A DNA stretch of 64,000 nucleotides from Raillietiella orientalis (Eukaryota), in NCBI GenBank assembly GCA_036172245.1, contig JAYWIR010000049.1, positions 434,001 through 498,000 on the forward strand, in the 5' to 3' direction. Numbering within the stretch: position 1 is the first letter of the stretch; every line of letters begins with the position of its first letter. Shown here in pieces: positions 12,652 through 47,529 of this stretch. The notes beneath the pieces are model-generated. The model had not been told where the DNA came from. It did not search any database and was given only the letters and a program-made list of their open reading frames with translations. The position numbers and the translations under genes are program-made.

Positions 12652-12748
12652 TTTTTCCCCTGTCCGACTTGCGGAGGGAGAATTTATTTATCTTAACACT
12701 TTAACAATGGTTACTCACTTTCAGTAATTACTCTTTTTCTTACTTTTC

Positions 12749-15700: not shown

Positions 15701-16219
15701 AGTCCAAACTCGTCGGAGAGCTTCCGATACGCCACTTTTCCTCCGGTATCCCTGAACTGGGCACTGATTACCGGTATATTCAGATCGCCCACGATAGCGA
15801 CTATGTCCTTTGGTGCGACCTTGCAGCGCAGAAGATCCCGCACATCGATGCTTTTCCGAGTGGGGTCCGTAAACGTTGACCAGCAAAAGGTGAACTGCGC
15901 AGGACCAGGACATCCGAACTCCAACGATGCGGCCGGGCCACGGAGAAAAGGATTCCAGAACGGTGTGCGCGATCCTGTTCTTGATGAAGATCGCAACGTC
16001 CTTGGTCTGCCTCTCTCCCGGACTCAAGTACAATGTAGCATCCAGTCGCTGTTCGAGTTCGCGGCAGATCTGGTCGTCTGTTTCGTAGGTCTCTTGAAGG
16101 CAGATGATGTCCTCGCGCTCGACGTTACGCGCGATCCTTCTTTTTCCCTGGTCTCGCATCCCATTCACATTCCAGAAGGCAATCTTGACACTCCAGGAGG
16201 AAGACAGGAAGAAACACAT
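12749..16219 (-). pseudogene. B1 ORF2: APE endonuclease - reverse transcriptase - Cys/His motif, frameshifted
   Basis: WNVNG, ICLQET, VNVYGP, GDLN, IDHV, SDH; AAGPD, WRPISI, DMEKAFD, GIRQGDALSPMLF, YADD, KYLGV; CNACGIRDTH. Confidence 0.9.
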
Positions 16220-16231
16220 GGGCAATCACGT

Positions 16232-17655: not shown

Positions 17656-17770
17656 GATGTTTTCCTTTGCCTCTCGGAAACGATCTCCTCGGGTCCTCCT
17701 TCTTCTTCTTAGGCGTCTGTGAGTTTGAAATGTACAAACAATTTCGGAGCACACGCAAGGTTAGCACTAC

Positions 17771-19267
17771 CTCAGCAGAAAAGCAATCTCCCGACTGCCG
17801 CGGAGGCAACGCCATTGCTGTCTTTTGAGGGCGCAGGGAAAGCTGTGCACCAGGCACTGTGAAATCAACCCCAGAGGTGCCCGCGACGAAAGTCGCGAAT
17901 CCCTCCGAGGAAAGCGACGACAGATGGACGGTTGCGGAGAGGGAGAAAGGCAAAATCTCCGGAGAATGCTGCGCATCTTCCTACCCTGAACCTTTTCAAG
18001 GCAAGGAACACTCGCGCGAAGGTTGCTTGTGCCTTAACAAAAGCCGCTGCCGTCGTCGAGTGCAACGCGAAAGCTGCGCTCACTGGGAGCGATGCTCCGG
18101 TGACCGCAAAGAAGGGAAAAACTGTGGGATCATCCACAGACACTTCCGAATCGACGCAGCATGTTAAGTGCCAATCTCTCGTGCGTCAATCAGACTCCGA
18201 AACGGAGTCCGATGCAACCGCTGACCGGCGCATCACACGAGCGGAGGCGGTAGCGCTCCGCGCTAATGCCTTCAGGCGCGAAGCTCACGCCGCGAAATAG
18301 CCAGAGGCTGCAGCTGCAAGCGACGTTACTCGGAGACGATCACTCGGTTGCGTGCAGCACCTTGGAAGACGGTGGCAACCGCGCCCTTCAACGTGTCGTG
18401 CTGCTAACTGTCCTCTGGCCCCAGGAGGTGAGCAACACGTCCCCAGTTTCCCAGCCCTGTTGCGAGGAATCGCGTCTTCTCGTCGTCTGTCCGTCGCTCG
18501 TTGGAACGTGAACGGTTTGCAGAACGACGAGAAAAGGTTTTCCCGGTGGTAGCGAACGCTTTGCGCCCTTTCGACCTCGTGTTCCTTCAGGAGACACACG
18601 TAATCTTTGGAGAGCAGGCTGGGGAAATCGAGAAGCTCGCAGGCGGAGCGCTGATTTGGAGGTGCGGGACGCACATAGTGCGGAGTTGCGTTCCTCGCAA
18701 GACAATTGGGGATGCGGTGCGTAGCGTTTGTTTGACAATGACGTACGGGTGGGCCAACTTGTCATCAAGTGACCCGAGTCCATCGCTCTCGTCGTGACGA
18801 ACATCCACGCGACGAGTGCCTCTCCCTACCTCGCCGAGAGAATAGAATTCTTTGGAGAGGTGAAGAGCCACTGGCACAACATCTCCGGTCCCAAAGTGGC
18901 GCACCTCGTAGCGAGGGACTTCAACGTCCGGCTGCTTTCTGACGATTGGGGCTTTCCCAGGGAAGGTTTGCTGGCCATCGAGATGTTGGCGATAAGTGCA
19001 CGCTGCCAACTCGAAGGTCAGCGTACTTGAGATGCCAAAATCGCCGGATCACATCTTCCTCGATGAAAACCTGCACTCTAGGGTGAAAAGGAGAGAAAGA
19101 TTTACGTCCGGACTTTCTGACCATCACAATTTGGAGTTTGCGCTCCTTCCGCCAGGCAAGGGGCCTCCCTTGAACAACTGGAGGATGCCGGCGAACTGGC
19201 TGAGCGATCCGGAGGCGGAGGAACATCTCCGTCAGCACCTACGGAGCTTCGTCATCAGCGAACTCGC
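17771..19267 (+). mobile_element. Right half of host 1 (family A-like): ORF1 end and ORF2 endonuclease
   Basis: Homologous to 41000-42500; WNVNG, FLQETH, RDFNV, PDHIF, SDH. Confidence 0.85.
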
Positions 19268-25930: not shown

Positions 25931-26693
25931 GGGGAGCCCAGGGGTTATTCCTGGGAACGTGGCAGTGCGGCTGCCGCCACCTGATCGGGAGGGACGGATG
26001 AAGGAGGGGGTGCATCCCGCACCGGTTCTCCCTCCTACATGGGGGCCGATTCTGCTGCAGGTCTCATCGGTGGGTGTGGGTGGGTATCACCGACGTCGCC
26101 TTCGAGCGAGCGGCGGAAGAGCTGGCTGCCTCGTTGCAGCCGGCCCCTTCCAAGGCTGGCAAGAAGGCAGTAAGGCGTCCGGCTTCTTCCCAAGAGTAGG
26201 TAACTTCCGACCCCGAGGCGGAGGTCGAAAGCACAGCTTCCATCACCGCGGCATTCCGCAGGAAGGCTGGACGAAAGTCCACCAAACCCCGGAAGATCCT
26301 TCCCCTAGACGAAGGGGTGGACATGGCTTCTGGGAGCGAGGGTGTCATGAGCGTGGGAGAATCGCGGAACTCGTCGCTCGAGAGACTCCCACGCTCGGAC
26401 ACGGAGGGGATGGAAGGGGTGGAGGTCGAACAGGTGCCTCATATGCCTGAGGAGGCCGAAACTCTGATTGCTATCTCATCCGCCTCGGAAGAGGCGGTTT
26501 CCCCCACACCAACAACTTCCCAGCAGTAATGCCGGGAATCTCCTCCCGCCGTCGTCTGCTCATCGCCGTTTGGAACGTCAACGGCATGACAGACGCCGGC
26601 AGGAGACGAAACAAAGCCGCCCTGCTAGGATCCTTCGACCTTGCTCTGCAGAACAAGCGCGGGAGATCGAGAGGATCTCCGGAGGGCAGCTGT

Positions 26694-26749
26694 TTGTCAC
26701 CCGGGTGCGCCGGGGCGTTTATTAAAAACTATCCGGGAACAGAGTTCCT
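26694..26749 (-). mobile_element. 56-bp 3'-terminal stub of family E
   Basis: Near-identical to 26765-26820; bounded by target copies at 26681-26693 and 26750-26764. Confidence 0.65.
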
Positions 26750-26764
26750 GGAGAGGGCGGCTGT
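26750..26764 (+). repeat. TSD GGAGAGGGCGGCTGT (partner 30474-30488)
   Basis: Exact 15-bp direct repeat at both ends of the family E element. Confidence 0.85.
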
Positions 26765-29700
26765 TTGTCACCCGGGTGCGCCGGGGCGTTTATTACAAAC
26801 TATCCGGGAACAGAGTTCCCGGACAAATGGGAAAACAAGATACGAAGGGGGTGGGATCCCCGACACGCAGGTCGGTATGCTGAAAGTCCGGAACGGGAGG
26901 GAGGGAACCACAAATACATTACTATAAAAAATAAAAATAAAAATATGGAGGGCAGGGGACAGGGGTCTTTCGTGAGTCCGTTCCTTCCTTTCAAAACCGG
27001 CGATGGATGCCGGCGATCTCTCTCCTCACGCTCTCTGGTAGGTGGGCCCACTCGGCAGCCGACGACATGTTTGCGCTGGCTAGTCCGGTGAGCTGACGAA
27101 GGATGGCCAGCTTCTCCAACTCTCGGTGGACCTTGTCGATGGCGCGGGTGCAACACACGGTTGCAACGACAGCACCCAAAGACAGGCCGCCTGGCGTGAA
27201 GAAGCGGCGCATCAAGTCTCTCGCGGTGTCCCCCTGGTGTAGGAGAGCTGAGGCCAGCCTCCGCCACAGTCCTAGGAGGGCACCGCAGTCCAGGAGCAGG
27301 TGCGGGGGCGTTTCCACTTCCCCGCACCGCTTACAGTTTCGGGAGACAACTCCCCCGGAAACACGGTTCGTCCGCTGGTTGGAGTGAAAACCCCAATGCA
27401 CCAGCATGATGACGTCCTGCTTCCACAAAAGGGGGAACACAGAAGTGTTCAAACAGGAGGGAGGGACCACAAGTTCTTCGGGGGGCACACTCAAGTGTTC
27501 ACTCCACCGAAGGAGTCCCTTCGAGATGTGGCGAGGCGTGGCGGCGTCTGCCAGCTCGCAAGTCCTCCAGCCGCCAATAGGTCGTGTTGTTCCTGCGATG
27601 GTGCAGGCGACCTCCCATCTCGCCGGTTCGCAGCTGTCATCTCTTACCCTGAGGGCTGACAGTCCGTCGGCGAGGGGGGTGAGGGCCAGGCCGGTCCACT
27701 TCTCCTGGCTGCTGCAGACCTCATCCACCGTGCAGTACGGGGAGTGGTGAACGCAACGGAGTTCCAGGAGGGAAACATCCTGGTGCTTTGCCTAGCCATA
27801 CAACGGTTCCTGCCGCCAGGCTTGAAAGTTCGTTGGGCGGCAGGAGATCCATTCCTGGGCTGCCAGGAGCCGGTAGAGGGGTTTCAAGGGGAAACCGAAA
27901 CTTGTCGTGGGGTGCTCCGTGTGCGGACGCAGCGACAGAAGTCCGTCGCTGCCGGTGCAGCGCCGCAGGAGCAGGCGCGCAGGAGCGCACCACGGAGTGG
28001 ACCAAAGGTTGGCGCACAGGGCCAACATTCGAAGCTGCACCTGCAGCTCGATTCTCTCCACCGTCAGGATGCCTAAGCCAGCATCCCGACGCGGAGCCGC
28101 CAAGTCTTTCAGGCGGATCCTGGACCTCGCAGGACCCCACAGAGCGTTTCTCAACAGGCTGTGCGCCTGGAGCTTCGCCGAGTAGGGGGGCGGGCAAACA
28201 AAAAACAGGGGGCGCAAGAGGGGGGCAACGGAGGTGTTTCATATCGCGGCCCGCTCCGACAGGAGGAACCTGCCATGCTGGAACGGGCTCAGCGCACTCG
28301 CAGCCTTCCGAAGGCAGTCCGACCACACTTCCACTGGGCTGATGTTCCCCAGCGGAACGCCAAAGTATTGGAAGGACGAAGCGGTCGGGATCCCCGGGCG
28401 GATCCAGTCGGACTGCCCCTCCCACGCCGCACCAATGGGTACGACCACGCTCTTGCTCCTGTTTACGCTCATGCCCGCTCCCCGGCGGATCAGCTCGAGG
28501 AAATCCTCGAGACTGGACGCCGAAATGGTCATGGGTAAGAGGAGAAGCAGGTCGTCAGCATATGCCGCCACGGACGGCGTTCCTGGACAAAGGCTCGGCC
28601 GGTTGGCCAGCGTCAGCCTGTACGCCCTCAGCACCAACTCAAAGAAGATGTTGAAGAGCAACGGGCTTAAACTGTCGCCCTGCCTGATGCCCCGCCGCAC
28701 CGGCACGCCGTACACGTGGCAGCCGCTGAAAGAGATGGAAATGAGCGCGTGGCGCCAGCGAGCGCGCAAATACGCCACGAGGTGCACCGGGAGACCGAGG
28801 CGTTCCAGGAGCTCCAGCAGGAGATCCTGATTTACGCAATCGAACGCCTTGCGGAGATCGACCGCGACCGCCAAGGCACCCGGCGCTTCCTCAGGCCGAA
28901 TGCAGCAACGCCTAGCCCTGGCAGCCGCAGATGCGGTTGCCTGGCTGTCGTGCGCCACGCAGCGTTGCAGCTCGAGCCACGTGCGCGCGAAGAACAGGTT
29001 CGCCTCCATGGACCGCCCGGGAACAGCGTAAGACTGCTCCGGACTTACCACGGATCCAGCGATCCTACCTAGGCGCGCGACCCAGAGCCTGGAGAACAAC
29101 TTGACGTCCGCATCCACCAAGGTGATGGGACGCCAGTTGCTTAAATGGCGCATGTCTCCGCCTTTCGGCAAGAGACGCACCCTTGCTGAGCGAAACGAGG
29201 CCGGGACATTGCCCGTCTCTCGCATCAGCGCAGAAAGCCTCAGCACCAGGGGGATGAGTTCCACCGCGAAGCACTGGAAGAACTCCGCAGGCAGACCATC
29301 CTCACCTGGCGCCTTGCGCTTCTTGAGGCCCGCTATGGCGGAAGACACTTCTTCCGCCGTGAAGGGCAAGTCAAGAGTGGAGCGTTCCTCCTCGTCGACC
29401 GCAGGGGAATCCGCCGGCAGAAGCAGCTCCGAGAGACTGAGTTCCGTCGGCTCCCTAGCATACAACGAGGAGTAGTAGCGCTTTAGGAGGCGGCGAATGT
29501 CGGCCGCGCCCGAGCACTCCAGGCCCTGGTCGTCGAGCAGACAAGCCGCTCCTGACTGCCAGACCTGGCGCTCGGCCTTGGCCTTGTACTCCGCAAGTTA
29601 CCGGACGTCCGGGCATCGGGAGAATTGGCGGGCCTGCAGAAACTCTCTGCTGTTGGCCACGCCTTCCCCGAAGCCAAGGGGAAGCAGGCGCAAGGGGAAC

Positions 29701-30473
29701 CGGCTGTAGAACTCGCGGACCGATCTTTTCAGATCGTCCCAGTCCACGAGCTCTCGGACGGCCAAGGTCCGGAGATGCTGACGGAGGTGCTCCGCAGCCA
29801 CCGGATTTCTCAGCCAGTCGGCCGGCAACCTCCAGACGTGCGTCGGAGGGCCCTTGCCAGGCAGGAGTAGCTCAAACTCCAGCCTGTAGTAGTCGGAAAG
29901 CTCGGACGGCACGGGACCTCTTCGACCCACCCGACAATGCAGGTGATCATCGAGGAACACATGGTCCGGCAAAGCACGCATCCCGGGATCGTCGGCCAGC
30001 AAATTCGAGGCGTGCACCGACGCGCACACCTCGTTCACCAGCCGTTTCTCCCGGCGACGGTGAGACTCCTCCGATAGCGCGTGGACGTTGAGGTCCCCGG
30101 CTACGAGGTGAGCCACGTCGGGGCCGGAGTTGCTGAGCCAGCGGTCGCGCAGTCTCTCGAAAAACTCCAGTTTCTCGGTGTGACGCGCGGAGCCGCTCGG
30201 CGCGTACACGTTCGTGACGACAAGGTTGATCGATTCGGACCACTTGAGAACAAGTTGGCCCACACGACCTTCCTCGTCGAAACAAACGCTCCGCACCGCT
30301 CCCGCCACCCTGCCCCGGACAAGGAATGTGACTCCGCAGGTATTCTGGGAGCCTGACCTCCAATGGAGCGTCCCGCCTGCGCGAACTAGCAGATCGGCCG
30401 CTTGCTGCTCGGAGAGTGCGTGAATCTCCTGCAGCAGGGCCAGATCGAAATCGCGCAAGACGTTGGCAACCAA
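26765..30473 (-). mobile_element. Family E LINE, 5'-truncated near the ORF2 start (3.7 kb)
   Basis: EN (LLQEIH, NVYAP, GDLN, PDHVF, SD), RT, CKRCGEVETPPHLLLDC, 3'UTR with terminal hairpin, 15-bp TSD. Confidence 0.9.
26991..30473 (-). pseudogene. Family E ORF2; the RT domain is open over 28239-29465
   Basis: KAPGEDG, WRPITL, DLRKAFD, GIRQGDSLSPLLF, YADD, FQYFGV; stops and frameshifts between segments. Confidence 0.9.
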
Positions 30474-30764
30474 GGAGAGGGCGGCTGTGGTATCGGTGTG
30501 AGACAACCAAGAGTTGCAATGTTGCCTACCTGCTTCGGCCAGCTGTTGAGGCCGCGGCGCAGGGCGTGCGGTTCGACGATCAAGGTCGTGTCAGCCAGCT
30601 GATTCTCAGGTGGTCCGACTCCATCGACCTCATCGTCACGAACGTGTACGCCGCGAGTAGCGCGGACCTGACGACCAGGAGAGAATGGAATGAATGTTTC
30701 CTTTCCCACCGGCGCGACTGGCTGAGTAAAGCAGGCTTGCGGAATGCCCATCTGTTTGCAAACG

Positions 30765-30778
30765 ATTTTAACGTTCTC
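30765..30778 (+). repeat. TSD ATTTTAACGT(TCTC); partners 32206-32219 and 45306-45315
   Basis: Direct repeats bound both family A insertions and encode (D)FNV of the host endonuclease. Confidence 0.85.
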
Positions 30779-32205
30779 CACGTCGGGATGCCGGTCTTGG
30801 CATCCTGACGATGGAGCGGAGCGGACTGCAAGCGCAGTTCCGGATACTGGCACTGTGTACCAAGCTATGGACTTCCCCCCTGTGTGCGCCTACGCGCATC
30901 CTCCTACGGAGGAGTGCCGGCAGTGTAGGAATTCTTTCCTTGTTGCCAGTCATGCGTCACAGAAAACAGGGATTTAGCTATCCTTTCAGGCAACTCGCCA
31001 CCCTGTTGGAAGCCAATACGTGGATTTCCTGCCGCCCAATGAACTACGATGCTTGGCGGCAGGAAACTATTGATTCCTGGGCTGCATTCCTAGGAATGAG
31101 CCGCGAAGATCTTCGCCTCCTGCGTCAATTTCAACCTTCGCCACTCCAAGATGTGATCCAGGACCAAGTGAAGTTTTCCTCCTTGGCCGCCACGCTCCTC
31201 GCCGAAGCATTGTCTGACCTCGAGGTTCGAGAAGACAGTAGCCAACCGGCAAGGTAAGAGTTCTCCTGCACCATCGCGGAAAGAACGGAGCTCCTCGGCG
31301 AATGGGACACGATCGAGCTGGCGGACACTGCCACTCCTCGTGCTACAGCAAACGGACTACTTCGGTGGGGAGAAGCTCTTGTTGTTGCCCACGAGGAACT
31401 GATAGTCCCTCCCTGCTATTTGGACGGTTCGGTATTTCCCCTTGCATGGAAGCAAGACGTCTTACTCTTCTTGCACTGGGGATTGCGCTACAACGAGCGG
31501 CGACACCGAGTTTCCGGTGGGGTGTCTTCTCCCTACTGTGCCCGGTGCGGGGCGACGAAGTCGTTCCTGCACCTTGTTTTCGACTGCGGTGCCCTTTAGG
31601 AACTCTGGCGGAGGTTAGCAGTAGCACTCCTACCACCAAGGGACACCGCCCTTGAAGTGCTGCGACGGTTCTTCCAACCGCAAGGACTTTCGACGGCTTC
31701 GATGATTTCCACAGTTGGTTGCATCCGCGCCATCGTCACGGTCCGAGACGTGCTGGAGAACACTGGTCAGCGATGCTGTGACACCAGGAAGGCAGCCGAC
31801 TTCATCAGTGCGGCAGCTAGGTGGCGACACTTGACCGAAAACGCAACGTAGCTCACCAGCATCCATGGTCGGATTACCTATGGTTTGGTGATCCATCTCC
31901 ATTCCCATTCCATTTCATTTTTGTTTTCGCGTCCCACCTCCCATTCGCTCCGTAGTGCTTTTGGAGCTTTTACTCTTTGTGTTTTCCGGTAACTGAGGGG
32001 CGTCACCAAAGATCCCTGGCCCATTCCTCCCATTTAGACTGTTCTTTTTTGTTTGTGGTGCCCTCCTCCCCATTCCTTCACGTTCTTCCGTTTTCCTAGC
32101 CTACGTGCCAGTGGTGTATCTCCGTTGCTGGTGTTCTTTTGTCGTTGGTTGGAAACCACTTTTTCCATCCAACGACATAAACGTCCCGGTGTGACTGGGT
32201 AAGAA
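30779..32205 (+). mobile_element. Family A LINE, 5'-truncated (1.4 kb)
   Basis: Nearly identical to 43879-45305 (offset 13100); CARCGATKSFLHLVFDC; terminal motif at 32177-32200. Confidence 0.9.
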
Positions 32206-33720
32206 ATTTTAACGTTCTCTTTCACGAGAGACGGACATGCATTTGTGTCGCTCTGCTCCTAAGCTGTTTGGTTGTGCTTGTGCGTCCCACTGCTTAGTCC
32301 TAAGGATGAGCAGTGGTGAAGACAACTTGGAAGTCGTCGAGCCAGTGGTTCCTGAACTTTCCGCAGTTGGAACGATGGCGACAACCTTTGCGAGCCCCGC
32401 GCCACCGGCCAGGAGCTTCGCGGACGTGGCAGCATCTGCAGCCGTAAAGGGGCGACTCCCCGACCAGGCAGAGTGGCAGGCATATGTAGCCCAGGGCTAC
32501 AAACCTGCTCTCCGCTATAATGTAAGTGGGGTAGGCTTAGCTGGGCAGGAGTTCGAAGACGAACTCTTCCGTGTGGGAGTGCGAGAGGAGGACCTGCTAG
32601 CCCTCATGCCTGTTCTTGCATTGGGCTATGTTAAGGTCCGATGCCATCAGGCTGCCCTTTTGCAGCGGCTCCTCCGCACTCCCTTGTCCATCCGCGGGAA
32701 GAAAGTTTTTCCCTCCGCGATGGATGGACGAGTCTTTTGTCGTTGTTCTTTCGGACGTAGAGCCGGAGATCAACGACAAACAGTTGGTGGACGCGTTGGC
32801 GAAATTCGCCACCGTTCATGCGGTGTGTAGGAAGGGGAGTTCCTACAAGAAGTTCCCTTTCTTCCACACAGGATTTGCTGCGGTTAGGATAACCGTTCCC
32901 AACCGCCGCACTCTGGCTGCTACGTTACAGGTCAAGGCACGGTCGTTCACCTGTGGTTCGCAGGCAAAGCTCGCGCGTGCGAGCAATGCGGCAGGGAAGG
33001 AGATCGGGAGCAAGAATGCCCTTCCCCGAAGTGCCGCTATTGCAAGGAGTCCGGGCACGAAATCAGGCAGTTCCCGGACATTGCAAGAAAGAAGGAGGCT
33101 GCTAGACTCCGGCGCGCCAAAAAAAGCGCAGAGTAGCAAACAGCAGTTTCTAAAAAACAAGTGGACTCGCGTAAGCTCGCGAGAAAACAGGGCAGGAACG
33201 TAGTCCCTAAGTCGGCTTCCTCTGCCGCAAAGCCCGAAAGGGCAATCGGGCGGCAGGGAAGCCTATTAAAAAAGGACGCGAGGGCTCCGCGCGTGCCGTC
33301 ACTGATCCCGCAGCCGAAGGCGGAGTTACCGCTCCGGGAATGGGGTCAGTGAAGCCAGTTACACCGTGCGACAGCGCGAAAGGGGGACACGCGAATCGCA
33401 ATTGCGCAACAACCATCTCCTTGGGCCCGTTGTGCATTTCGGGGACTTCAATAGGAAACCCAAAAAAGGCGGCTCGGAATCTGGCGAGAAAACCCAGGAA
33501 AAGCGGAGGCGCGTTACTTGAAAACACGCCGCAACCAGTCGCATCCTCCCTAACGCAGCAGTTTTCCCCAATTCCCACAAGGGGTGGGGTAATTGATTGT
33601 TCATTTATACTACATTCACATTCACTCACTCGAAACTTTTGTTCCGCACTTTTCACTTCACTTCACTTTCACTTGGGGAGTGACCGGGGGAAGTTTACCG
33701 TGGGTATGCACTTGGGAGGA

Positions 33721-36700
33721 CTACGTATGGGTTCTTCCCTGGACGCTATTTTCTATCCTACGTAGGATATACTTGTATGTCCAGAATTGCACTTTGCCGC
33801 AGTTCCATATTCCAATTTCCTTCTGGACGAGTCCTTTCAGGATGTCCATGGGGGGTGCAACCTCTCTGGAATTCTTCATCTTCCACCATCGTATCAGGAT
33901 GGCAGTGATGAAGAGGGCAATCGTCATCCTAGCCATCGGGTTGTACAGAGGTACGTCGCCGTCTCCTTCTCCGTGCTAGGACTTTCGTGATGGTAGCGTC
34001 GGGCAGTCCTATGACCCTTTTCAGGGTCTGCCAGTCCTGGCGGATGGTGGGACACGTTGGGACGTGGAGTCTTGTTTCCCGGTCACCACACGCCTTGCAC
34101 TTTCCGTCTTCCGTGTTCCCTGTAAAGTGTTGGATCCTTGAACCACTCTGAATTCCTCCATGGAAGAATCTCAGGAAATCATCCTGAGTATTCGACGGTA
34201 GGTCACTCCTCCATAGTGGCGTGCCGATCGCCAACAGGTTGATACTGTGGCGATCGGCAGCTTCTTGGAGGGCACTGATGTCTAGATTGTCCTCTTTAAT
34301 GATTTTGCGGAGGTTTTTCCTATCTATCCTGTACCACGCGAAGTTGTTGTGGTTTTTCCACAACTCGCGGGTCTTGTGGGTGCATTTTCCCAACACCATC
34401 TCGATGTACCGGAGTATACGAGAATGGTGAAGCTATCCTCCTCTTCTCCATTCCTGGATTCTTTTTAGAGTAACTCTGGGCCGCTGGTAGATCCAGCTTC
34501 TTGTGTCGGGAGGCACGTGAAGCATCCAGGGGATCACTAGGATGGACTCCTCCTGCCAGTTTCCTGCTTTGTGGTACGATCTCCAGTTGGTGTTTTCGTA
34601 CCAGCTGTTGTTTTCTTTTCCAGGTGGGATCGATGGTGTTCCACTTCCTTCTCGGCCTAGCAGCGCAGTCATCGGGCCCTTCGAGTTGTTCAGTAACAAT
34701 GAATAGGCCCTATGCGCCGCATGCGGCCAGTCATCCCAGTGGGCGGCGATCTCCAGGATTTGTCGCGTATCCATGATTTCCATGCAATGTGCAGGCGACT
34801 TCATCCCGGTCCCACCTTTCTCCTTGGGACGACATAGCGGTTTCAGTCTTGCTCTTGGTCTGTAGATGCTCCATAAGATTTTCCTTTGCAACCTCTCCAA
34901 TTCTCTGCGGGTGTTCTTGTCCATTCTGCCAAAGGCCGCCCCGAAGAGTATCTTCGGACGGATTACTCCGTTCCACGGGTTGGCCCTCCGCTTCATGTTG
35001 AAGTCCGTCCGCGTGTACTTCGTTGCTTCTTCTGCTGCCTTTCCCAGGATTTCGATCCATAGCAGCTTCGACGCGGAGTCATCACCGATGTGGACTCCCA
35101 AGTACTTGGCGCTGTCCACCGTTAGGAATGCTTTCTCCGTGAATGAGGAGAGTTCCAGGATTCCGTCGGGCAAAAGTTGACTCTTCTGGGCGTTGATTTT
35201 TAGCCCAAGTCCTTTCTCCATCATCTCCACCACATCCAGGAACGCATACGGATCTCGTTCTTCCTTGATGAAGAAGAGAAGATCGTACGCGTAGGGCAGA
35301 TGAATGAGTTTTTGATCGTCGATCTTGATCCCTCGGAGGCGTCTGCTTCTTTCAATGAATGATGTCAAAGCCTCCATGTAGTTAACAAACAGCATCGGAC
35401 TCAGCGAGTCGCCCTGGCGGACTCCTCGTTCCATCCTGATAGCTGCTGTTTCTACTCCGTTGATCTTGATACGAAAGTGTTGATCGACTAGTATCATTCT
35501 CACGAAGTTGCTGAAGTGTTCCGGGAGACCCACTTTTCCCAGAATCTTTAGCAGCATCGCGTGGTCGATGGTAACGAATGCCTTCTCCATGTCGGTGAAC
35601 ACCAGCACCAAGTTCTCGCCGACATATCGGCTGAGTCCCACGGTGGTCTGGGCACACTTGACATCGTCCGACATGTGGCGTCCGGGCACCGCGTATGTCT
35701 GGACTGGAGAGATTAACTTCGGCATGACCTTGCCTAAGCGGTTGGCCCAGATCTTTGCCAACCACTTGGCATCGAAGTTGAAGATTGAGATTGGCCTCCA
35801 TTGGGAAACTTTGGTTAGGTCTCCACCTTTCGGCAGCAATCTCATCCTGCCCTCGTAGAAGGACGCAGGTAGTCTGCCTTTTTGTCGGATGCACAGAGTT
35901 AGCTGGTGGAACAGACGCAGGTAGTCGTGTAGGTATTGCTGGTAGTAAGAGATGGGAACATTATCAGGTCCTGCCGCCACATCCTTGCGTGGTTCCGAAA
36001 ATGCAGCCTTCAATTCGAGAAATTTTCTTCCAATTTCTTTCGCTGGAGTTCATCGATCTTCTTCTCTAAGTGGCTCAGAAAAGCATTTTGTGTCGCCGGG
36101 CACAGGCGTTGGTGCCGAAAGTGTCCCGTGTAATGCCTCTGGAAGGCGCCCACGATCTCTTCCGGCGTGTGCCGGCTGTGGCCGTCGTACTGGATGCAGA
36201 AGATGTCTGTTGCCAGGTTCTTCTTCTCCAGCACGCCGACTTCCCGTTTTATGTTCTTGAAGACGTACCGGCTCTCGTACTGGTCCCAGTACTTGGAGAG
36301 GGAGCGGTCTTCGATGTTCTGCTCCCGGTACGCTTCCTATCTCAGTCGCTTGTCCCCGTACTGCATGTTGCAGAACAGATGGACTCGATGTTTCAGGCTG
36401 TCCCAGTTGGCGACTCTTTGGATGGTGCTGGTCCTCAGAATCGCCTCGATGAGTTCTTGATGACTGGGAAGCGTCTCCAACCAGGCGGGCATGCAGATGA
36501 GCACCGCCCTTGCGTTCTGCTTCCGTCGAGGATTTTCGGTTCTTAGGGAGAACTGCACCAGCGGTTGATCAGACAGCGAAGTTGGAGTGTCGCGAAAACC
36601 CCCGATGCGGTTCTCTAGCTCTCTGCTGTGTAGGACGTGGTCGATCGGCTTGTGGCTAGCTGTTCGCCACCGAAGTCCGAACTCGTCGGACAATCGCCGA

Positions 36701-37210
36701 TACGCCGTCCTTCTTCTTGCGTCCTGGGAATAGATGATGCCGTCCAGGATATTCAGATCGCCAGCAACGATCACGACTCCTTGGGTGCGACCTTCTCCCG
36801 GAGTGCTGCATGCAGCACCTCCGCGCACCGGTGTTTTTCGATGTGTGGTTCGTACACGTTCACCAAGAAAACGTAAACGGTGGGGGACCACGCCAGTCGT
36901 ACACCGATGATTCGTCCTGGTATGCGACAGAAGACTTCCAGGATTGTGGGTCCAGGTCGTTGTTCATCAGCACCGCCACTCCATCGGTGTTCCTCTGTCC
37001 CTCGCTGACGAACATTTGCATGTTGAAGCGTCGTTCCATTTGCAAGGTGATCTGATGACCCAGCTCGTGGATCTCTTGCAGACACACTTGTCCGAGGTCT
37101 TCATGGGCGATGATCCGCACGATTCTTTTCCTTTTACTCTGGTTGATCAGTCCATTAACGTTCCAGGAGGCCATGTTGATCCTCCTAGCGATGGACAACG
37201 ACGAGGCCAT
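33721..37210 (-). pseudogene. B2 ORF2 EN-RT-Cys/His, frameshifted; RT open over 34433-36013
   Basis: WNVNG, VCLQEIH, GDLN, IDHV; WRPISI, DMEKAF, GVRQGDSLSPMLF, YAYD (mutated YADD), KYLGV; CKACGDRETRLHVPTC. Confidence 0.9.
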
Positions 37211-37219
37211 AAGGGGGCT

Positions 37220-38781
37220 CACTTAGCTTTTCTGAGCTTCTTTTGTCGGGAAGAACGTTGTAATCTTCCCGACGAAGAATCGGGCTTCTCACTACCAGCA
37301 TCGCTCTCCGTGCCGGTATGATCGGTCAATTATCGGTCGTCGATTGACCGGTCGACTTTGACGACCGCCTTGCACGGGAGGGTCTCCACGTTGACCTTCT
37401 CGCAGTACGCCGCCTTGACTTCAAAAAGCTCAGTCTCCAGCTTTTTGCCCTCAGAAACCTCTACCAATCTGTTGATGTCCTCTTGGACCTCGCAGATGCG
37501 AGCCAGAATCTGTTCCTGCTGCACCGCGGTAGGCTCCTGTCGGACCTCCTCTACCAGCTTCACCACCTCCATGGTGAGCTGCAGGGTCTCTTGCGTCGCC
37601 GGGGTGGGTTCGCTAACTTCCATTTGTTCCCCATGTGGCGCGCCATCCTGCTCCGCGGCCTTCTGGGAGGGTTTCTGCTCCTGCACGAGCATACTCTTGC
37701 CGCCTTTTCGTACTTCTACAAAGCCGTCCGCCAAAACCGGAGCGGCCTCCTTCGCCTTCCTCAGCTTCTCTACTTTTTGAGGCTTTACCACTTCCGCCAG
37801 AACCTTCTCCCGCACGGTGGAGCCCACGCATGGTCCGGTAGTTTGTGAACTCCGGACAACACCATCTCGCATGCCCCGACTCTTTGCAAAAGGAGCACAC
37901 CTCGGGCATGTCGCAGCCACGCACCTGGTGTCCCTGCTTCCCACAGCGGAAGCACCGAGACCTCGGACACACGCTCATCCTATGTCCGAAATTTTTGCAA
38001 CCAGTACAGAACACCGGTTGTTGCCTATATCGGATGAAGACTTCCTGAGAGTCTCCATCGATGTGCACGATCCCTGGGATCTGCGCCTCCTTTGCCAATT
38101 TGATCTTGGCGATGACATCGCCGGAAAAGATCCTCCCCTAGAAGTTCTGGAATTTCACCTCCAGAACTTCCCCGTACCTCGACAAAAAGGCTCAGACTGT
38201 CTGCTGGGTGGTGGTGATGCCGATGCCACTGAGAAAGACGGTCGTGTACGGCATTTCGCCGATACCGCGAACCATCCGTCCTTGGATGTTGATGCCCTTT
38301 TCGGTCAGGGTCTCCCTCAAGGGTTCACTATCAGTGTACATCGTGAAGCCCGACGTGATTGGGATGATCGCTTGGATGCGATCGAAATCCACATTCTCCC
38401 TATAAAGTGTCAAGTACACTTCTTCAATATTGTCAAACTGGATTAGTCCGGTTTGGAAAGTGATTGGCTTCGATGCCGGACTGATCCGGAAGATCGGCTC
38501 GTCCACGTTCTCTATTTTCCCGCTCTCGGGCTTTCCAAATTTCCGCTGGGCATTCGAATGGACCGCGGCTACCGCCGCGTACGGAATTGGCCGCGCCGTC
38601 GCAGCGGAGGAAGATGGCGTCGCGACCTGCGAGCTCCCACCACATTGCATGCCGTAGGCTTCGCCGGGGGCGCTGCCGCGGGCGCAACCCGCAGCGACTT
38701 CGTCGCTTCGCCATCGCCGCACGATACCTCCATTCCCAGGGGGAATGTCGGTCTCTCCTCCATCGCGTGGTCTGCTTGCAT
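37220..38781 (-). pseudogene. B2 ORF1, frameshifted
   Basis: PYAAVA; three knuckles CTGCKNFGHRMSVC, CFRCGKQGHQVRGC, CSFCKESGHARWCC. Confidence 0.85.
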
Positions 38782-39005
38782 CCTGGCACTCTCTGGTTGA
38801 TGCACTCTCGCCGCCGTCGCTGTGGGACGCAAGCCCTCCTCTATGGTTCTGCTGCAGATGGTGGTAAATGTTCTCTGCCGCACTGTCCCTAGTGGTTGGC
38901 CACAGACACTGGTTTTCACTTATTCACTTCCCCGCTTGGGGCACGCAAAAATTGCCGCAGCAGTGATGGTGCTCACTGCCTTGGCGGGGTATTCGGTATA
39001 GTTTT

Positions 39006-39021
39006 TTCCTCGTCTCAGCAG
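39006..39021 (+). repeat. TSD TTCCYCGTCTCAGCAG (partner 41000-41015)
   Basis: 16-bp direct repeat with 1 mismatch flanking the deleted B1 copy. Confidence 0.85.
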
Positions 39022-40999
39022 TTTTTCCCCTGTCCGACTTGCGCAGGGGAGAATTTATTTATCTTAACACGTTTACAATGCTTTCTCACTTTCAGTATTT
39101 AATCTTTTCTCACTTTTCAATGTTCTGGAATCCTCTGCAAGATATGGTAGTATATCCAAGTTGGAATTCCTCCACAACTTCTGATTCCAATTTCACTGTT
39201 CAGGAGACCTTTCAATATTTCCATAGCAGGCACCTGGCTCATTCCTGTCCGCATTTTGGCCCTCCTTATTACGATCCTTTTGATAAAGAGGGCTATGGTT
39301 ATGAGGACCATCGGGTTGTATCGGGGAACATTGCCGTTCCCTTCGAAAATCCCAACGAGAATCTCCATCTTCCGCAACGGCTGCAAGTCTATCACCTTCT
39401 TGAGACTGGTCCAGTCTTGGCGCAGAGACGGGCAGGTGAGTACGTGAAGGGTGAGTATCTCTGATTCCACATGCATTGCACTTCTCCTCCTGCGGATCTC
39501 CGGTCCAGTGTTTGGTCCTAGTGCCGCTCAGAATGCCACTGTGATAAAACATCAGGAGCTCATCCTGAACGTCGGGTGGTAAGTCGCTCGTCCAGACCGT
39601 GGTTCCAACCACCAGCGGTTCCACCTGGTGGCATCCGTATCGGTTGGCGGTCACAGACAGAGCGTCGTCGTCGTTTGTTTCCTTCATACGTGCTTCTCCT
39701 ATGTTTCTCCTGGTTATCAGGCGCCAGCGGCTGGATTCCTGATTGGTCCAGACCTCTCGATATTTGTGGGTGAATTTTCCAACTATCTCCGTGGTTAGCT
39801 GATACAGCCGCATTTTTTGGTGAATGCCACTTAATGCGAACTGCTCTCACTCCTTTATGGTGATCCTTGGATTCTCGGATATCCATTTCCTGGTGTCCGA
39901 TGGGACGTGCAAAAACCACGGGATAATCCTCATTAGTTCGCTCTCCCAAATTTCCTTACTTCTAAGCACTATTTTGAGGTGATGGGTGTTGACCAGTGCC
40001 TGTTTCCGTATCCAAGTAGGGTCGATGTTTCTCCACCGTCCTTGTTTGCCTATTAGGGCTAACATTAGGCCTCTCGAATTGTTGACCAACTGCGAGTAGG
40101 CTTTGTGCGCTGCATAAGGCCACTCATCCCATTTGGTGGCAAGTTCCAGTTGTCGCACGTCCAGCAGATGCACGGACCGTTTGAGCGATTTCATCCCGGT
40201 CCCACCTTTGTCTCGCGGTCGGCACAGGATTTTCAGCCTGACCCGCGGCTTAAACTCTCTCCATAAAATCCTCCATTGTAGTTGTTCCACCTGCCGGCAC
40301 GTTCCATCGTCTACTCGACAAAAGGCTGCTCCGAAGAGCACCTTAGGAAAGAGAACTCTGTTCCACAGGTTTTCCCTTCGCTTCAGGCAGAAGTCTAGTC
40401 GTACGTATTTTGCTGCCTCTTCTCTTGTTTTCCCCAGGATTCCTTTCCACATTTCCTGCGAAGCCGAGTCATCGCCGATGTATACTCCTAGGTACTTGAT
40501 GTTATCCACTACTCGGAATCCTGCTTCCTCTAAGGCGGCAAGGTCCAGGATTCCGATGGGCAACAGTTGGGATTTCTGGGCGTTGATCTTCAAGCCCAGA
40601 CCATTCGCCATAGATTGGACGAAACCAAGGGACTCATGCTGATCCTTGCCTTCCTTCAAGAAGAAGAGCAGATCATCCGCATACGCCAGGTGCGTCAATC
40701 TGTCGTCGTCAAGGCGTATTGCTTGGATACGGCCGCCATGGTGGACCAGTGACGAAACCGCTTCCGTATAAACTACGAACAGCATCGGACTAAGGGCGTC
40801 TCCCTGACGGATTCCCCTTTCCATCCTGATGTCTGCCGTATCATTTCCGTATCGTCCCCGGGGGGTACGTCTCCATGTTGTTTTCCTGTGCCTCCTGGCA
40901 ACGGTCTCCTCGTATCCTCCTTCTTCTTAGTCGCCTGCTAGTATTTTTCAAAAAAAAAAAGCACAAACAATTTCGCAGCACACGCAGGCTAAGCACTAC
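39022..40999 (-). mobile_element. Family B1 internally deleted copy: ~150-bp 5' end joined to the RT-3' half at 40850/40851
   Basis: 39022-40850 matches 12652-14482; 40851-40999 matches ~17630-17770. Confidence 0.9.
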
Positions 41000-43900
41000 T
41001 TCCCCGTCTCAGCAGGAGAGGAGCGATCTCCCGACTTGCTAGGAGGCTGTGCCATTGCCGCCTTTTAAGGGTGCAGCGAAATCTGCGCACGAGGCTGTTG
41101 GGGAGGAAAGCCCGGAGACGTTCTTGACGAAAGTCGAGGAACCCTCCGAGGAAATGGACGGCTTTTGGACGGTTGTGGAGAAAGAGAGAAAAGTAAAATC
41201 TCCCAAAAATTCTCCGCAACCTACTTCCAAGAGCCTCTGTAAGATAAGCAACTTCGAGCCAAGGTTCCCTCTGACGCTGCAAAGGCCAACGCCGCTATCG
41301 CGCATAGCGCGAAAGCTGCGATCGCCGGGAGCGATGCCCCGGTGACCGCGAAAAAGGGAGTGACCGCGGTTCCACCGCGAGCACTTCCGAATCGACGCGG
41401 CAGGTGAGTCGTGAAGCGCTCGAGCGTCGATCAGACTCCGAAACGGAGTCTGATATCACCGCCGCACGTCGGATCACCCACGCGGAAGCCGTAGCGAGAC
41501 GGGCTAATGCCCTGAGGCGCACAGCGCATGCCGCGAAGGAGCGAGAGCTCACCCCGGAACATCAAGCGACGTTACCCGGAGACGAGCACTCGATTTCGTG
41601 CAGCACCTTGGAGGACGGTGGCGACCGTGATCTCCAGCCACACTGCTGCTTACTGTCCGCTCGCCGGTGAAAACGGGCAAAAAGCCGCCGACTTCCCAGC
41701 ATTAATGCGGGAAATCGCGTCTTCTCGTCGTCTGTTCGCCGCGTGTTGGAACGTGAACGGACTGCAGCACGACTAGAAGAGGCGATTGGTAGCGAACGCC
41801 CTGTGCCCCTTTGACCTCACGCTCCTGCAGGATATTCACGTAATCTACGACGAGCAGGCAGCCGATTCGAGGAACGCTCAGGCGGAACGCTACTTTGGCT
41901 GTGCGGCGGCCCATACACGTGCGGCGTCGCGTTCCTCGCAAGAGGAAAAATGGCGGAAGCGGTGCGTGGTGTTCGCTTCGACGACGACGGATGGGTGGGC
42001 CCACTTGCTGTCAAGTGGTCCGTGTCCATCGATCTCGTCGTGACGAATATCTACGCGCCGAGTGGCTCTCGCTACCTCGAAGATGGAATTGCGCTCTTCG
42101 AGGAAATGAAATGCCACTGTCTCAACAACTCCAGTTCCCAAGTGGCGCACCTAGTCTCAGAGGACTTCAACGTCCATCTGCTCTCTGACGGAAGGAGCTG
42201 CCCGAGGGAGCGCAAGTTGGCCATCGAGATTGGTCGGCGTACCTGAGATGGTCGGCGTACCTGAGATGGAAAGGTCGCCGGATCACATCTTCCTTGATGA
42301 CAACCTACACTCTTGTGTGAGAAGGAGAGACAGATTGTCGTTCGTACTTTCTAACATCACAGGTTGGAGTTCGAGCTCCTTCCTCCAGGCAAGAGGCCTC
42401 CGTTGAGAAACTGGAGGATGCCGGCGGACTGGCTTAGCCATCCGGAGGCGGCGGATCATCTTCGTCAGCACCTCCGGACCTTCGTCATCCGCGAACTCGA
42501 GGACTGGGATCATCTAAAGAGATCAGTCCGCGAGTTCTGCGAACGGTTTCCCTTGAACCGGCTTCCGCGAGGCTTTGGAGAAGGGGTCGCCAACAGCAGG
42601 ACTTTTCTGCAGGCGCGCACCTTTCCGAGACGCGCGGATGTCAGCCAGCTTGCGGAATACAAGGCCAGAGTCGAGAGCCAGGTCTGGCAGTCTGGAGTTT
42701 CATCAGGGCTTTGCGGCGGAGCTCGTCCCCCTGGTGCTTAGCCTCTCTTCGCTGATAAGGGTTTCAGGGCATCTCTCCAATTCCTTCCGCTCAGCGAGTG
42801 TGCGTCTCCTGCCTGGAGACACACGCCATCTGAACAACTGGCGTCCGGTCACCTTGGTGAACTCAGACTTCAAGTTGTTCTCCAAACTGTGGGTCGCGCG
42901 ACTAGGAAGGATCCTTGGTAAGGCCGGAGCAGACTTACGCTGTTCACGGGCGGTCCATGGACGAGAACCTCCTGTTCTCTTGCTCCTGGATGCAGCTGCA
43001 GGAGCGCGTAGCGTAGCAAAGCCGGACCGTGTCAAAGGCTGCTGCCTAAGACAGACGGTATCGGCAAAAGCGGCAGGAGGGTACGCCTGGTGCCTTGAAG
43101 GTCGCAGTCGATCTCCACAAGGGGTTCGATTGCATAAACCAAAGACTCCTCTTGGAGCTCTTGGAACGCCTCGGTCTCCCGGCGCAACTTTTGAATTACT
43201 TGCGCGCTTGCTGACGCCACGCGCTAACCTGCATTTCTTTTAGCGGCTGCCACGTGTACAGTATTCCCGTGCGCAGGGGCATCAGGCAGGGCGACAGTTT
43301 AAGCCCGTTGCTCTTCAGCATCTTCTTTTAGTTCGTGCTGAGGGCGTACAGGCTGACGCTGGAGTACCCGCCTAGCTCTTGCCCGGAAACGCTTCCCGTG
43401 GCTGCCTATGCAGATGACCTGCTTCTTCTGCTCCTCATGTGCACCCCAGCGTCCAGTATCGAAGATTTCTTCGAACTGATTCGTCGGGGAGCGGGCGTGA
43501 GCGTGAACAGGAAGAAGAGCGTGGTCGTTCCTGTGAGAGAGTCGTGAGAGGGGCAGTCCGACTGGATCTGCCTGGGGATCCCCACGGCAGGGTACTTCAA
43601 GTACCTTGTCGTTCTGCTGAGCGACCTCGGCGATGCCGAGGCGTGGTCGGACGGCCTTCATAAGACAGAGTTGGCCGCCACTCCCTTCATTAATGGCAAG
43701 TTTACCTTGACGAAACGGGAGTCTCTTTGGAACACCTTCGTGCCCCCTCTCCTCCTAAGACCCCTGTTTTTTCTCTTGGACCCCCCCTACGCGGCCAAAG
43801 AGCGGGCAAAACACCTGCTAAGGAACGCTTTCTGAGATCCGACGCGATCCAGGATCCGTCTCAGAGACCTGACGGCTCCACGTTGGGATGCCGGTCTTCG

Positions 43901-46900
43901 CATCCTGACGATGGAGCGGAGCGGACTGCAAGCGCAGTTCCGGATACTGGCACTGTGTACCAAGCTATGGACTTCCCCCCTGTGTGCGCCTACGCGCATC
44001 CTCCTACGGAGGAGTGCCGGCAGTGTAGGAATTCTTTCCTTGTTGCCAGTCATGCGTCACAGAAAACAGGGATTTAGCTATCCTTTCAGGCAACTCGCCA
44101 CCCTGTTGGAAGCCAATACGTGGATTTCCTGCCGCCCAATGAACTACGATGCTTGGCGGCAGGAAACTATTGATTCCTGGGCTGCATTCCTAGGAATGAG
44201 CCGCGAAGATCTTCGCCTCCTGCGTCAATTTCAACCTTCGCCACTCCAAGATGTGATCCAGGACCAAGTGAAGTTTTCCTCCTTGGCCGCCACGCTCCTC
44301 GCCGAAGCATTGTCTGACCTCGAGGTTCGAGAAGACAGTAGCCAACCGGCAAGGTAAGAGTTCTCCTGCACCATCGCGGGAAGAACGGAGCTCCTCGGCG
44401 AATGGGACACGATCGAGCTGGCGGATACTGCCACTCCTCGTGCTACAGCAAACGGACTACTTCGGTGGGGAGGAGCTCTTGTTGTTGCCCACGAGGAACT
44501 GATAGTCCCTCCCTGCTATTTGGACGGTTCGGTATTTCCCCTTGCATGGAAGCAAGACGTCTTACTCTTCTTGCACTGGGGATTGCGCTACAACGAGCGG
44601 CGACACCGAGTTTCCGGTGGGGTGTCTTCTCCCTACTGTGCCCGGTGCGGGGCGACGGAGTCGTTCCTGCACCTTGTTTTCGACTGCGGTGCCCTTTAGA
44701 AACTCTGGCGGAGGTTAGCAGTAGCACTCCTACCACCAAGGGACACCGCCCTTGAAGTGCTGCGACGGTTCTTCCAACCGCAAGGACTTTCGACGGCTTC
44801 GATGATTTCCACAGTTGGTTGCATCCGCGCCATCGTCACGGTCCGAGACGTGCTGGAGAACACTGGTCAGCGATGCTGTGACACCAGGAAGGCAGCCGAC
44901 TTCATCAGTGCGGCAGCTAGGTGGCGACACTTGACCGAAAACGCAACGTAGCTCACCAGCATCCATGGTCGGATTACCTATGGTTTGGTGATCCATCTCC
45001 ATTCCCATTCCATTTCATTTTTGTTTTCGCGTCCCACCTCCCATTCGCTCCGTAGTGCTTTTGGAGCTTTTACTCTTTGTGTTTTCCGGTAACTGAGGGG
45101 CGTCACCAAAGATCCCTGGCCCATTCCTCCCATTTAGACTGTTCTTTTTTGTTTGTGGTGCCCTCCTCCCCATTCCTTCATGTTCTTCCGTTTTCCTGGC
45201 CTACGTGCCAGTGGTGTATCTCCGTTGCTGGTGTTCTTTTGTCGTTGGTTGGAAACCACTGTTTCCAGCCAACGACATAAACGTCCCGGCGTGACTGGGT
45301 AAGAAATTTTAACGTCCACCGGAAACCGGATGGGCCGAATCATGAACGCGACCTGGTCAACGAAGTGTGCACGGCGGTGCACACATGTAACTTGTTGGCC
45401 AGTGAACCGGGGATGGAGGACAGCATCGATCACGTGTTCCTTGACGAGCACCTGTGCACTGGCGTGGGCAGGTGCTGCAAGTTACCGTCCAAGGTGTTCG
45501 ACCATCGCATGATCGTGCTCCAGATTCATCCGCGCGACAGGGGCCCTCCCTCGTCAGCGTGACATTTTCCAGTGGACTGGCTGAAGCTCCTTTACGCAGC
45601 GGAACAACTCCGCGCGTTCATATGGAGCATCAGGCTGCAGAAACTTCTGGATTAAGACCGCTTCAAACGGTCGGTCCAGGAGTTCTGCGACCAGTTCCCT
45701 CTGCACCACCTCCCTGCGGGATTTGGGGACGGGGTACGTAACCAGAAGTCGTATCTACAGGCCCGACGTTACGCCAGGACCCCCTACATTTGCAGGCTGG
45801 TGGAATACAAAGCGGGAGCTGAGAGGCAAGCCCGACAGTCAGGATCGGCCAGCTTGCTGGACGATCAGGGCTAGGAGCATTCGGCACCCGCTCAGATCCG
45901 CGGTCTGCTGCGGCCTTTTTATTCCTCCCTGTACGCCAGAACGCCTCCTAAGCGAGATGTCTCACGACTTCTGCTTCCGGAAGGCGCTCCAGCGATCGCA
46001 GAGGAGGAGAGAAAGACCCTCGACGAGCCTTTCACAATGGGCAAGATCATCTTGGCCATCGGAAAGCTCAAGAGGCGCAAGGCTCCAGGGGAGGACGGCC
46101 TGCCCGCGGAGTTTTATCAAACTTTCGCGGCTGAGCTTACCCCCCTGGTACATCAACTCGCCTTGCTGATCCGCGAAAGAGGTGACGTTCCCGCCTCGTT
46201 TCGTTCGGCAAAGGTGCGACTCCTCCCTAAGGGAGGAGATCTGAGGAGCATGAACAACTGGCGTTTCATCACAATAGTGAATGCGGACGCCAAGTTGCTA
46301 GCGAAGGTTTGGGCAGAGCGCTTGGGACGCCTTCATCAGCCCGGAACAGGCATATGCTGTTCCCGGGCGAAGCATGGAGGCGAACCTGCTCCACTCTTCC
46401 ACCTAGCTAGAGCTCCAACAAGAAAGGAGCTTGGTGCGCAGCCGAAATTCCGGTGCGTGCGCCGGCAAGGGGTCGGATGGTCGGGTGGGGGAGAGAGCCC
46501 TTGAGGTCGCAGTCGACTTGCGGAAAGCATTCGACTCCGTCGACCAGAATCTCCTGCTGGAGCTTCTGGAACGCTTAGGCTTCCCGGCCTCATTATTGGC
46601 CTATCTGCGCTCCAGCTGGCGCGACGCGATTATCAACCTTTCTTTCAGCAAGCAGACCGTACACGGCGTGCCTGTGCGGCGTGGGATACGGCAGGGAGAC
46701 AGGCTGAGCCCCTTGCTCTTCAGTACCTACTTTGAGTTGGTACTGAGAGCGTACAGGGAAACTCTGGCGCACCTGCCGCACGACTGCGCCGGTACGCCTG
46801 CGGCTCCAGCATACGCGGACGATCTTCTGCTGCTGCTCCCTATGTCCACCCCGGTTTCGGCGGTCGAGGAGTTCTTCGACCTGCTGAGTCGGGGAACCGG

Positions 46901-47529
46901 ACTGACGGTGAACAGGGCGAAGTCGTCCGTGATGCCAGTTGGTGCGGCGTGGGCAGGGCAGCAGGACTGGGTCCGTTTGGGGATCCACACTGTGAGGTAC
47001 TTCAAGTACTTTGGTGTGCCGTTGGAAGACTACTCCCCTGCGGAAGCGTGGTCCGGCTGCCTCCAAAAAGTAGATACGGCGATGGGCCCGTTCCGAGGCG
47101 TCAGATTTTTCCTGCCTGAACGGGCCGCGGTTTGGAACACGTTCGCGGCTCCTCTCCTCCGTTTCCTGCTTTTCGTTTGCCCCCCCACAGAGAGAATAAG
47201 GCGGGGAGGCGGGGCCTCAGGCTGTGGAAGATGAGGTGGAAGAACAACCTTCCCGCTCCTGTTTCTGCACCTTTGCTCCTGACAACGGTGCAGCAGAACG
47301 CCCACCATTACGTCGGTTGGCGACTTCTGCTGCTTGCCCTGAGGACAGGAGGCGTTGCGGCAAGGGATCTGCTGCCACCGGGGACGTCATTTCGTCCTGT
47401 CCTGAGAAACGTTTCCGAGCAGGTCGCAAAGAGCGAAGAACCTCCGGAAATTACATCCAGAGGGCTCCCCAGATCACAGCCGCCCCCTGCTGCCTAGCAC
47501 CTAGTACGTGGGAGACGAGATTTCCGAGG

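Follow-up and report, generated by a model that had tools for sequence, protein, structure and literature searches.

A 64-kb stretch of the Raillietiella orientalis genome (GenBank assembly GCA_036172245.1, contig JAYWIR010000049.1, positions 434,001 to 498,000; hereafter the window) carries a nest of long interspersed nuclear elements (LINEs) in which copies of several families, here designated A, B, D and E, lie inside one another. Based on the repeated occupation of the same positions in this nest and beside it, we consider it probable, at roughly 0.6, that at least some of the LINE families insert, through target-primed reverse transcription, at a single defined sequence within another such family. 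The re-use of one nucleotide position goes far beyond chance, and the case is carried above all by family B, the only family for which site-specific targeting is strongly supported. The evidence base is this one window, with the structure of the nest known from the assembled sequence alone, and the layout was obtained by reading the sequence and then placing the junctions by script (Table 1).

Results

Repeated use by family B of one position in family A

All three B copies in the window are found at one position of the first open reading frame (ORF1) of A-family elements. Two of them, B1 and B2, stand head to tail at a single position of A2, the A copy that hosts them within the nest, and are only about 66% identical to each other. 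The third, B', is a full-length element at the homologous site of A', which lies outside the nest and is 74% identical to A. In A the host sequence runs ..CCCTAACG up to the B inserts and resumes with CGTCCCC, and in A' it runs ..CCCCAACG up to B' and resumes with CGGCCCC. Compared with B', B1 is about 66% and B2 92.6% identical, uniformly along the length, and the identity drops sharply at the junction, from 0.85-1.00 inside B2/B' to about 0.74 in the flanking A/A'. The identities among the B copies, together with the sharp step at the junction, indicate separate insertions rather than one duplicated block. Judged from these comparisons, the double occupancy by B consists of independent events, and the site was hit in two diverged host copies. 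We also considered, and rejected, the possibility that B' and B1 are orthologous through one duplicated block of A, B and A, in which case B2 would still be an independent event at that site.

Architecture of the nest and precise removal of the inserts

Junction placement agreed with the original prediction that the nest has three levels, with B inserted into A, A into D and E into D, and that each occupied site is filled twice in tandem, a pair of inserts being present at 3/3 sites. The outermost element, D, starts within a 5'-truncated ORF1 (its 5' limit is uncertain, 25896-26090), and its second open reading frame (ORF2) begins with an ATG (26529) that overlaps the stop codon of ORF1 in the string TAATG. 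Inside A2, the CCHC knuckles of ORF1 lie around 32960-33080, and 2 additional nucleotides (AT, 40851-40852) follow B2.

Two short motifs delimit the inserts in D. The 11-mer GAGGGCRGCTG, present in three copies (26682, 26753 and 30477), brackets family E and a short stub of an E-type 3' end, and the 10-mer ATTTTAACGT, also in three copies (30765, 32206 and 45306), brackets A1 and A2; neither has a further exact copy within the window. Counted as target-site duplications (TSDs), the repeats of A are 10 and 14 bp long and those of E 11 (or 14) bp; B has 2 bp at most. The earlier description of the inserts as bounded by TSDs thus holds for A and E and fails for B, where it comes down to a repeated CG at most.

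For reconstruction of D, the E stub and E were removed, as were A1 and A2 (with B1 and B2 inside A2), and one TSD copy was kept per join. In a tblastn comparison with the ORF2 of E, the restored D gave one high-scoring segment pair over amino acids (aa) 25-475 in a single frame (51% identity, E-value 2e-141), with zero gaps or indels at both insertion joins, and a second segment pair spanning aa 471-766. This bears out the claim that removal of the inserts restores a collinear D ORF2. The restored ORF2 is itself decayed, with 4 stops and at least 2 frame changes. At the B site the ORF1 frame of A could not be read across the junction, A and A' both being decayed there.

On its right side D is broken at aa 766 against a decayed antisense LINE fragment (47211-48339, minus strand), so that the right edge of the nest is a rearrangement with no clean insertion boundary. 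The fragment adjoining the broken D end has an internal deletion; the N-terminal part of its reverse transcriptase (RT) lies at about 48030-48339, and ORF2 aa ~764-878 are encoded at 47530-47699. It was the only LINE sequence found when the region to the right of the nest was searched for continuations of D beyond aa 766 and of H2, an A-like element described below, beyond 24284; neither continuation was found there, hits below 1e-3 being the ones counted in the low-stringency comparison. A reading of D and the neighbouring E-like copy E' as one twin-primed, 5'-inverted insertion was rejected, their overlapping RT segment being just ~72% identical.

Table 1. Coordinates of the elements, junction repeats and related 3' ends, numbered from the first nucleotide of the window
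Feature	Position	Strand	Description
A' left	11580..12645	+	74% identical to A; ends at same B site; outside nest
B'	12646..17631	-	full-length family B at homologous site of A'; outside nest
A' right	17632..19266	+	cut at ORF2 aa 246 by antisense E-like J; outside nest
D piece 1	25945..26692	+	5'-truncated ORF1 tail, ORF2 start, through codons GGQL
E TSD copy 1	26682..26692		GAGGGCAGCTG
E stub	26693..26752	-	last 60 bp of E-type 3' end
E TSD copy 2	26753..26763		GAGGGCGGCTG
Family E	26764..30476	-	ORF2 minus ~25 first codons; endonuclease, RT and C-terminal CCHC
E TSD copy 3	30477..30487		GAGGGCGGCTG
D piece 2	30488..30774	+	endonuclease domain, W.. to ..ANDFNV
A TSD copy 1	30765..30778		ATTTTAACGT (D codons (D)FNV) followed by TCTC; the two together are the 14-bp flanking repeat of A1
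A1	30779..32205	+	5'-truncated family A, 1427 bp; ORF2 C-terminus and 3' untranslated region (UTR)
A TSD copy 2	32206..32219		ATTTTAACGTTCTC; final 4 nt are the first nt of A2
A2 left	32216..33555	+	5' end and ORF1 (ATG 32306), up to B site
B1	33556..39015	-	full-length family B; ORF1 with CCHC knuckles, ORF2 with endonuclease and RT; decayed
B2	39016..40850	-	5'-truncated family B, other subfamily than B1
A2 right	40853..45305	+	remaining ORF1 region, ORF2 (ATG about 41706), 3' UTR ending ..GGGTAAGAA
A TSD copy 3	45306..45315		ATTTTAACGT
D piece 3	45316..47210 (end about 47186-47210)	+	remaining endonuclease, RT, to ORF2 aa 766 (47186)
E-superfamily 3' ends	6933, 19267, 21133, 24285, 26693, 26764, 62749	-	
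E-superfamily 3' end	53022	+	
Target-site sequences			D-type ..GATTTTAACGTCC; D-type ..GGAGGGCAGCTGTGG; A-type ..CCCTAACGTCCCCGG

Pairs of A and E at one site each

In D, ATTTTAACGT adjoins both A-type 3' ends (2/2). At its 5' junction A1 shows truncation with a CTC microhomology, and it is flanked by a 14-bp repeat, ATTTTAACGTTCTC. Truncation, microhomology and a 14-bp TSD that includes 4 nucleotides of the A2 start together form the product expected from re-insertion into the junction between D and A2, and that A1 and A2 were independent insertion events is probable on these features, though not certain. The DFNV codons have paralogues in A2 and A' (GACTTCAACGT) and in E (GACCTCAACGT), each 2 nucleotides off the codons of D, and these are unoccupied.

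E and the stub share the GGQL/W site in D. The TSD at the 5' junction of E (copy 3, with the preceding GGA) matches copy 2 beside the stub over 14 nucleotides, which mildly favours an order in which the stub would have come first and E would have followed with a 14-bp TSD. For A and E, then, targeting is plausible on the sequence, and the second copy of each could be explained by DNA-level duplication. Of the site-specific targeting put forward originally, the part concerning B stood (3/3 copies, two hosts), and the part concerning A and E, with one host site each, was not established.

Coding capacity and 3' ends of the elements

Searches against Pfam detected Exo_endo_phos (1.2e-10) and RVT_1 (1.8e-21) in E, and RVT_1 also in B1, B2 and D, so that domains of the apurinic/apyrimidinic endonuclease (APE) type and of RT occur on both strands of the nest. 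When only solved structures were compared, the best match of ORF2 was human L1 ORF2p (1e-39, vs 4e-17 for R2). Database relatives are remote (identity 33% or below), and the best of those with a name is the Tx1-annotated protein P0031 (32% identity over 34% of ORF2, E-value 2.4e-36). A zf-CCHC match in the ORF1 of B1 (8.7e-4) falls below the Pfam cut-off, and CCHC spacing can be recognised when A and B1 are translated. On these domains and matches the families are assigned to the APE-type non-LTR (long terminal repeat) retrotransposons of the L1/Tx1 kind. The best-preserved ORF2 is that of E, with 1164 codons, 3 stops and no frameshift, and the 5'-truncated inserts are A1, B2, E and the stub.

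The 3' tails read ..GGGTAAGAA in A, ..AAACTGCTG (..AAACTGCYG) in B, with ..GGGGAAAACTGCTG at the end of B1, and ..GGGTGACAAA in E. Poly(A) is absent from the 3' ends of A, B and E, and a family-specific hairpin precedes each tail. The eight E-superfamily 3' ends of the window have in common AATAAAC..CCCGGCG..CGGGTG and a 5-nucleotide tail; among the seven of these that were aligned the hairpin is conserved, and no covariation or compensatory changes were found in it.

LINE insertions in the rest of the window

LINE ORF2 fragments were detected by tblastn with the ORF2 of E at 6.6-47.2 kb and again at 52-64 kb, and about 45 of the 64 kb are LINE-derived. The LINE-rich stretches have a GC content of 52-63% and the flanks one of 39-47%, and the CpG observed/expected ratio is 0.75-1.06 throughout, without the strong depletion typical of a vertebrate. 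The window gave no hit in scans for Rfam families and tRNAs, and Pfam recognised no family, and hence no host gene, in 91 ORFs from its non-LINE parts. Pattern scans of metagenomes returned 0 loci for the E-type 3' end and 0 for the B 3' end with its A flank, and a protein atlas returned generic RT clusters only.

Outside the nest, J, an E-like element (19267-20634), lies antisense in the ORF2 of A' at aa 246, and E' lies antisense beside the A-like ORF1 of H2. The E-like element G (minus strand) is 5'-truncated at the RT motif AFDCV and borders there on the A-like element H (plus strand) at its full-length 5' end. Since A-like elements host E-like ones here (J in A', E' in H2) and E-like G hosts A-like H, the pattern is that of a reciprocal network, and the targeting hierarchy that had been proposed for the nest was not established.

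The G-H composite occurs in two copies, 8223-9961 and 22374-24121, which have the same junction and may go back to a single event that was then duplicated. Within this otherwise 70-75% identical pair, a patch some 500 bp long (9284-9784 vs about 23440-23940) is 98-100% identical, the identity outside it ranging over 50-78%. Among further E-like copies, G2 is antisense in a D-like RT at aa 464. The hosts of G1 and G3 are two diverged plus-strand LINEs (6880-6960 and 62700-62790); both inserts are antisense and interrupt the codons of the C-terminal CCHC knuckles at equivalent points, to within about 13 bp. When sites rather than copies are counted, insert and host are antisense at 7/8 distinct sites, A in D being the sole sense case; this bias (sign test, p about 0.035) is suggestive only.

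Short flanks after J and after a relative of it (51944-53027, plus strand) are similar, reading CGAGTTCGCTGATG and CGAGTTGATG (19240-19270 and 53020-53040), and the two may share a target in a host too decayed to recognise. Elsewhere in the window, an AT-richer stretch contains an imperfect palindrome of 1.1 kb (49531-50623) that is 70% self-complementary and in which no protein family was found, and at about 61300-61960 there is an inverted duplication, in which a pair of LINE RT fragments are joined head to head (about 61800), each at ORF2 aa ~725.

Discussion

We propose that the APE endonuclease of each targeting family would nick the same phosphodiester bond each time, and that the second nick would be staggered, by 10-14 bp in A and E and by about 0-2 bp in B, so that the recognition sequence is rebuilt beside the insert. 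A later RNA, often partly copied, could then land at the same bond and so produce the head-to-tail pairs. In this scheme it would be the endonuclease, rather than pairing between RNA and target or chromatin, that sets the site, and A and E may be as specific as B.

Several observations weigh against site-specific integration. The B site is empty in no A copy of the window, no convincing TSD was found at the B junctions (the dinucleotide CG being repeated at most), and no intact, potentially active copy was seen in the window. A and E each have a single D host site there. A1 and A2 have 12 differences over 1427 positions (99.2% identity) and two in-frame stops in common; A1 could therefore be a DNA-level copy, made by unequal exchange between TSDs and then deletion, or gene conversion could have made the two alike. 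The stub together with the TSD that follows it forms a 71-bp tandem repeat with 3 differences, for which replication slippage could be an alternative source, and the shared patch in the G-H pair looks like gene conversion, a process that would then be active in the region. The other E-superfamily 3' ends (E', G2, J and the relative of J) are at different places, so that specificity, if real, would hold per subfamily, with one copy each.

An alternative is regional homing to a LINE cluster in the manner of Zepp, with a loose endonuclease preference; the exact double occupancies and the repeated junctions would then derive from tandem duplication, unequal exchange, gene conversion and segmental duplication of composite blocks. 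We regard this explanation as unlikely, though it has the near-identity and common stops of A1 and A2, the 71-bp repeat, the recurrence of the G-H composite with one junction and a 99%-identical conversion patch, and the LINE-derived bulk of the window in its favour, and Zepp clusters are indeed nested arrays of 3' ends (PMC8226300). It meets its main difficulty in family B, since B1 and B2 are too different to be mutual duplicates, yet occupy one site, and since B2 and B' are far more alike than the 74%-identical hosts around them, with a sharp step at the junction. For A1, the truncation, microhomology and 14-bp TSD would take two DNA-level steps vs one retrotransposition. An assembly artefact, in which repeats were mis-joined and the tandem pairs are not real, is very unlikely: the two 1.43-kb repeats of A, 99.2% identical and 13 kb apart, are of the kind that could mislead an assembler, but the junctions of A1 on D, of the A 3' end through the TSD to the A 5' end, and of the B2 3' end on the B1 5' end are novel joins that repeat collapse could not create, and excision restores the D frame exactly. 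Least credible of all is chance nesting of non-specific LINEs in repeat-rich DNA. Junctions do occur at many ORF2 positions (aa 246, 298, 464, 552, 683, 766 and about 1030-1050), as they would under chance, but five same-position pairs stand among about 13 recognised 3' junctions, against an expectation of about 0.01 when the chance for each pair is put, as a rough estimate, at 1 in several thousand, and the 10-mer and 11-mer targets are found nowhere else in the window.

Targeted LINEs are familiar from other systems. R1 and R2 target ribosomal DNA and TRAS and SART telomeric repeats, R2 by means of a restriction-like endonuclease. The present elements resemble them in the re-use of one nick site, in the frequency of 5'-truncated copies and in the presence of several families per host repeat, and differ from them in that their targets are retrotransposons rather than host multicopy genes or repeats. 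The 3' end of Zepp is a poly(A) tail, unlike those of the nest elements. In green algae, the L1 elements Zepp and ZeppL insert into copies of themselves and accumulate as arrays of 3' ends (PMC8226300, PMC3446292), and nesting in existing LINE copies, arrays rich in 5'-truncated 3' ends and GC-rich elements with a local GC peak are features in common with the window. Zepp, however, nests in its own family, whereas here several families are inserted in each other at fixed nucleotides; insertion into the own family was not encountered, each insert with an identifiable host lying in a different family, with the exception of A1 at the junction between D and A2. Two Chlamydomonas papers gave no site-level detail of ZeppL insertion. 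Drosophila heterochromatin has dense multi-level nests of transposons of a similar appearance, for which the abstract (PMC1794594) gives no fixed nucleotide site per family.

The closest parallel is offered by the Tx1 clade, which has been reported from animals (PMC4494074). Its members include LINEs that target transposons, such as Tx1L in the piggyBac-type Tx1D of Xenopus and Tx1-Mar in Mariner-N4_AMi (Kojima 2015, PMC4494074), and Tx1-8_Crp and Tx1-4_AMi, which target LTR retrotransposons (PMC4494074). They are L1-like LINEs of the APE type, as are the families described here, and they insert at specific sequences of a repeated mobile element, as is proposed here; their TSDs are 10-16 bp long, tandem inserts that sandwich a TSD are read as sequential insertions, and several families can be piled at one target (PMC4494074). 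The difference is that here the targets are coding sequences of other LINEs, from related and unrelated lineages, and that the relationship is reciprocal; placement of the present elements in Tx1 depends on the single Tx1-annotated match given above. LINEs that target transposons and the self-nesting of Zepp are thus already known, and only the multi-family form, LINE into LINE coding sequence, appears unreported. Several LINE families targeting each other's coding sequence were not found in searches of full-text literature, which is weak evidence of absence as most subscription journals and Repbase Reports lie outside the coverage of these searches.

A wider interpretation, which we put forward tentatively and would hold rather less readily than its opposite, is that of a guild of at least five L1/Tx1-type lineages (A/H-like, B, D, E and G/J-like), each with its APE retargeted to a 10-14-bp sequence in another LINE lineage. 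The targets would often be conserved catalytic-motif codons, such as those for DFNV in the endonuclease and for AFDCV in RT motif A, and the outcome would be a reciprocal, mostly antisense network of parasites upon parasites, in which each insertion both lands harmlessly and disables a rival. The elements might benefit from it through a safe haven or through the sabotage of a competitor.

Were the pattern merely the result of local rearrangement in a LINE cluster, the finding would be an ordinary one. If confirmed genome-wide, it would widen the biology of target-specific LINEs, so far one of host multicopy genes, microsatellites and DNA transposons, to include the coding sequences of LINEs that compete with them, and would provide a concrete case of transposon-versus-transposon ecology. 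It would also yield a naturally occurring set of closely related APE endonucleases whose long recognition sites differ, in which the reading of sequence by L1-type enzymes could be studied, and which would be of relevance to targeted RNA-templated insertion as pursued with R2 (PMC11371274).

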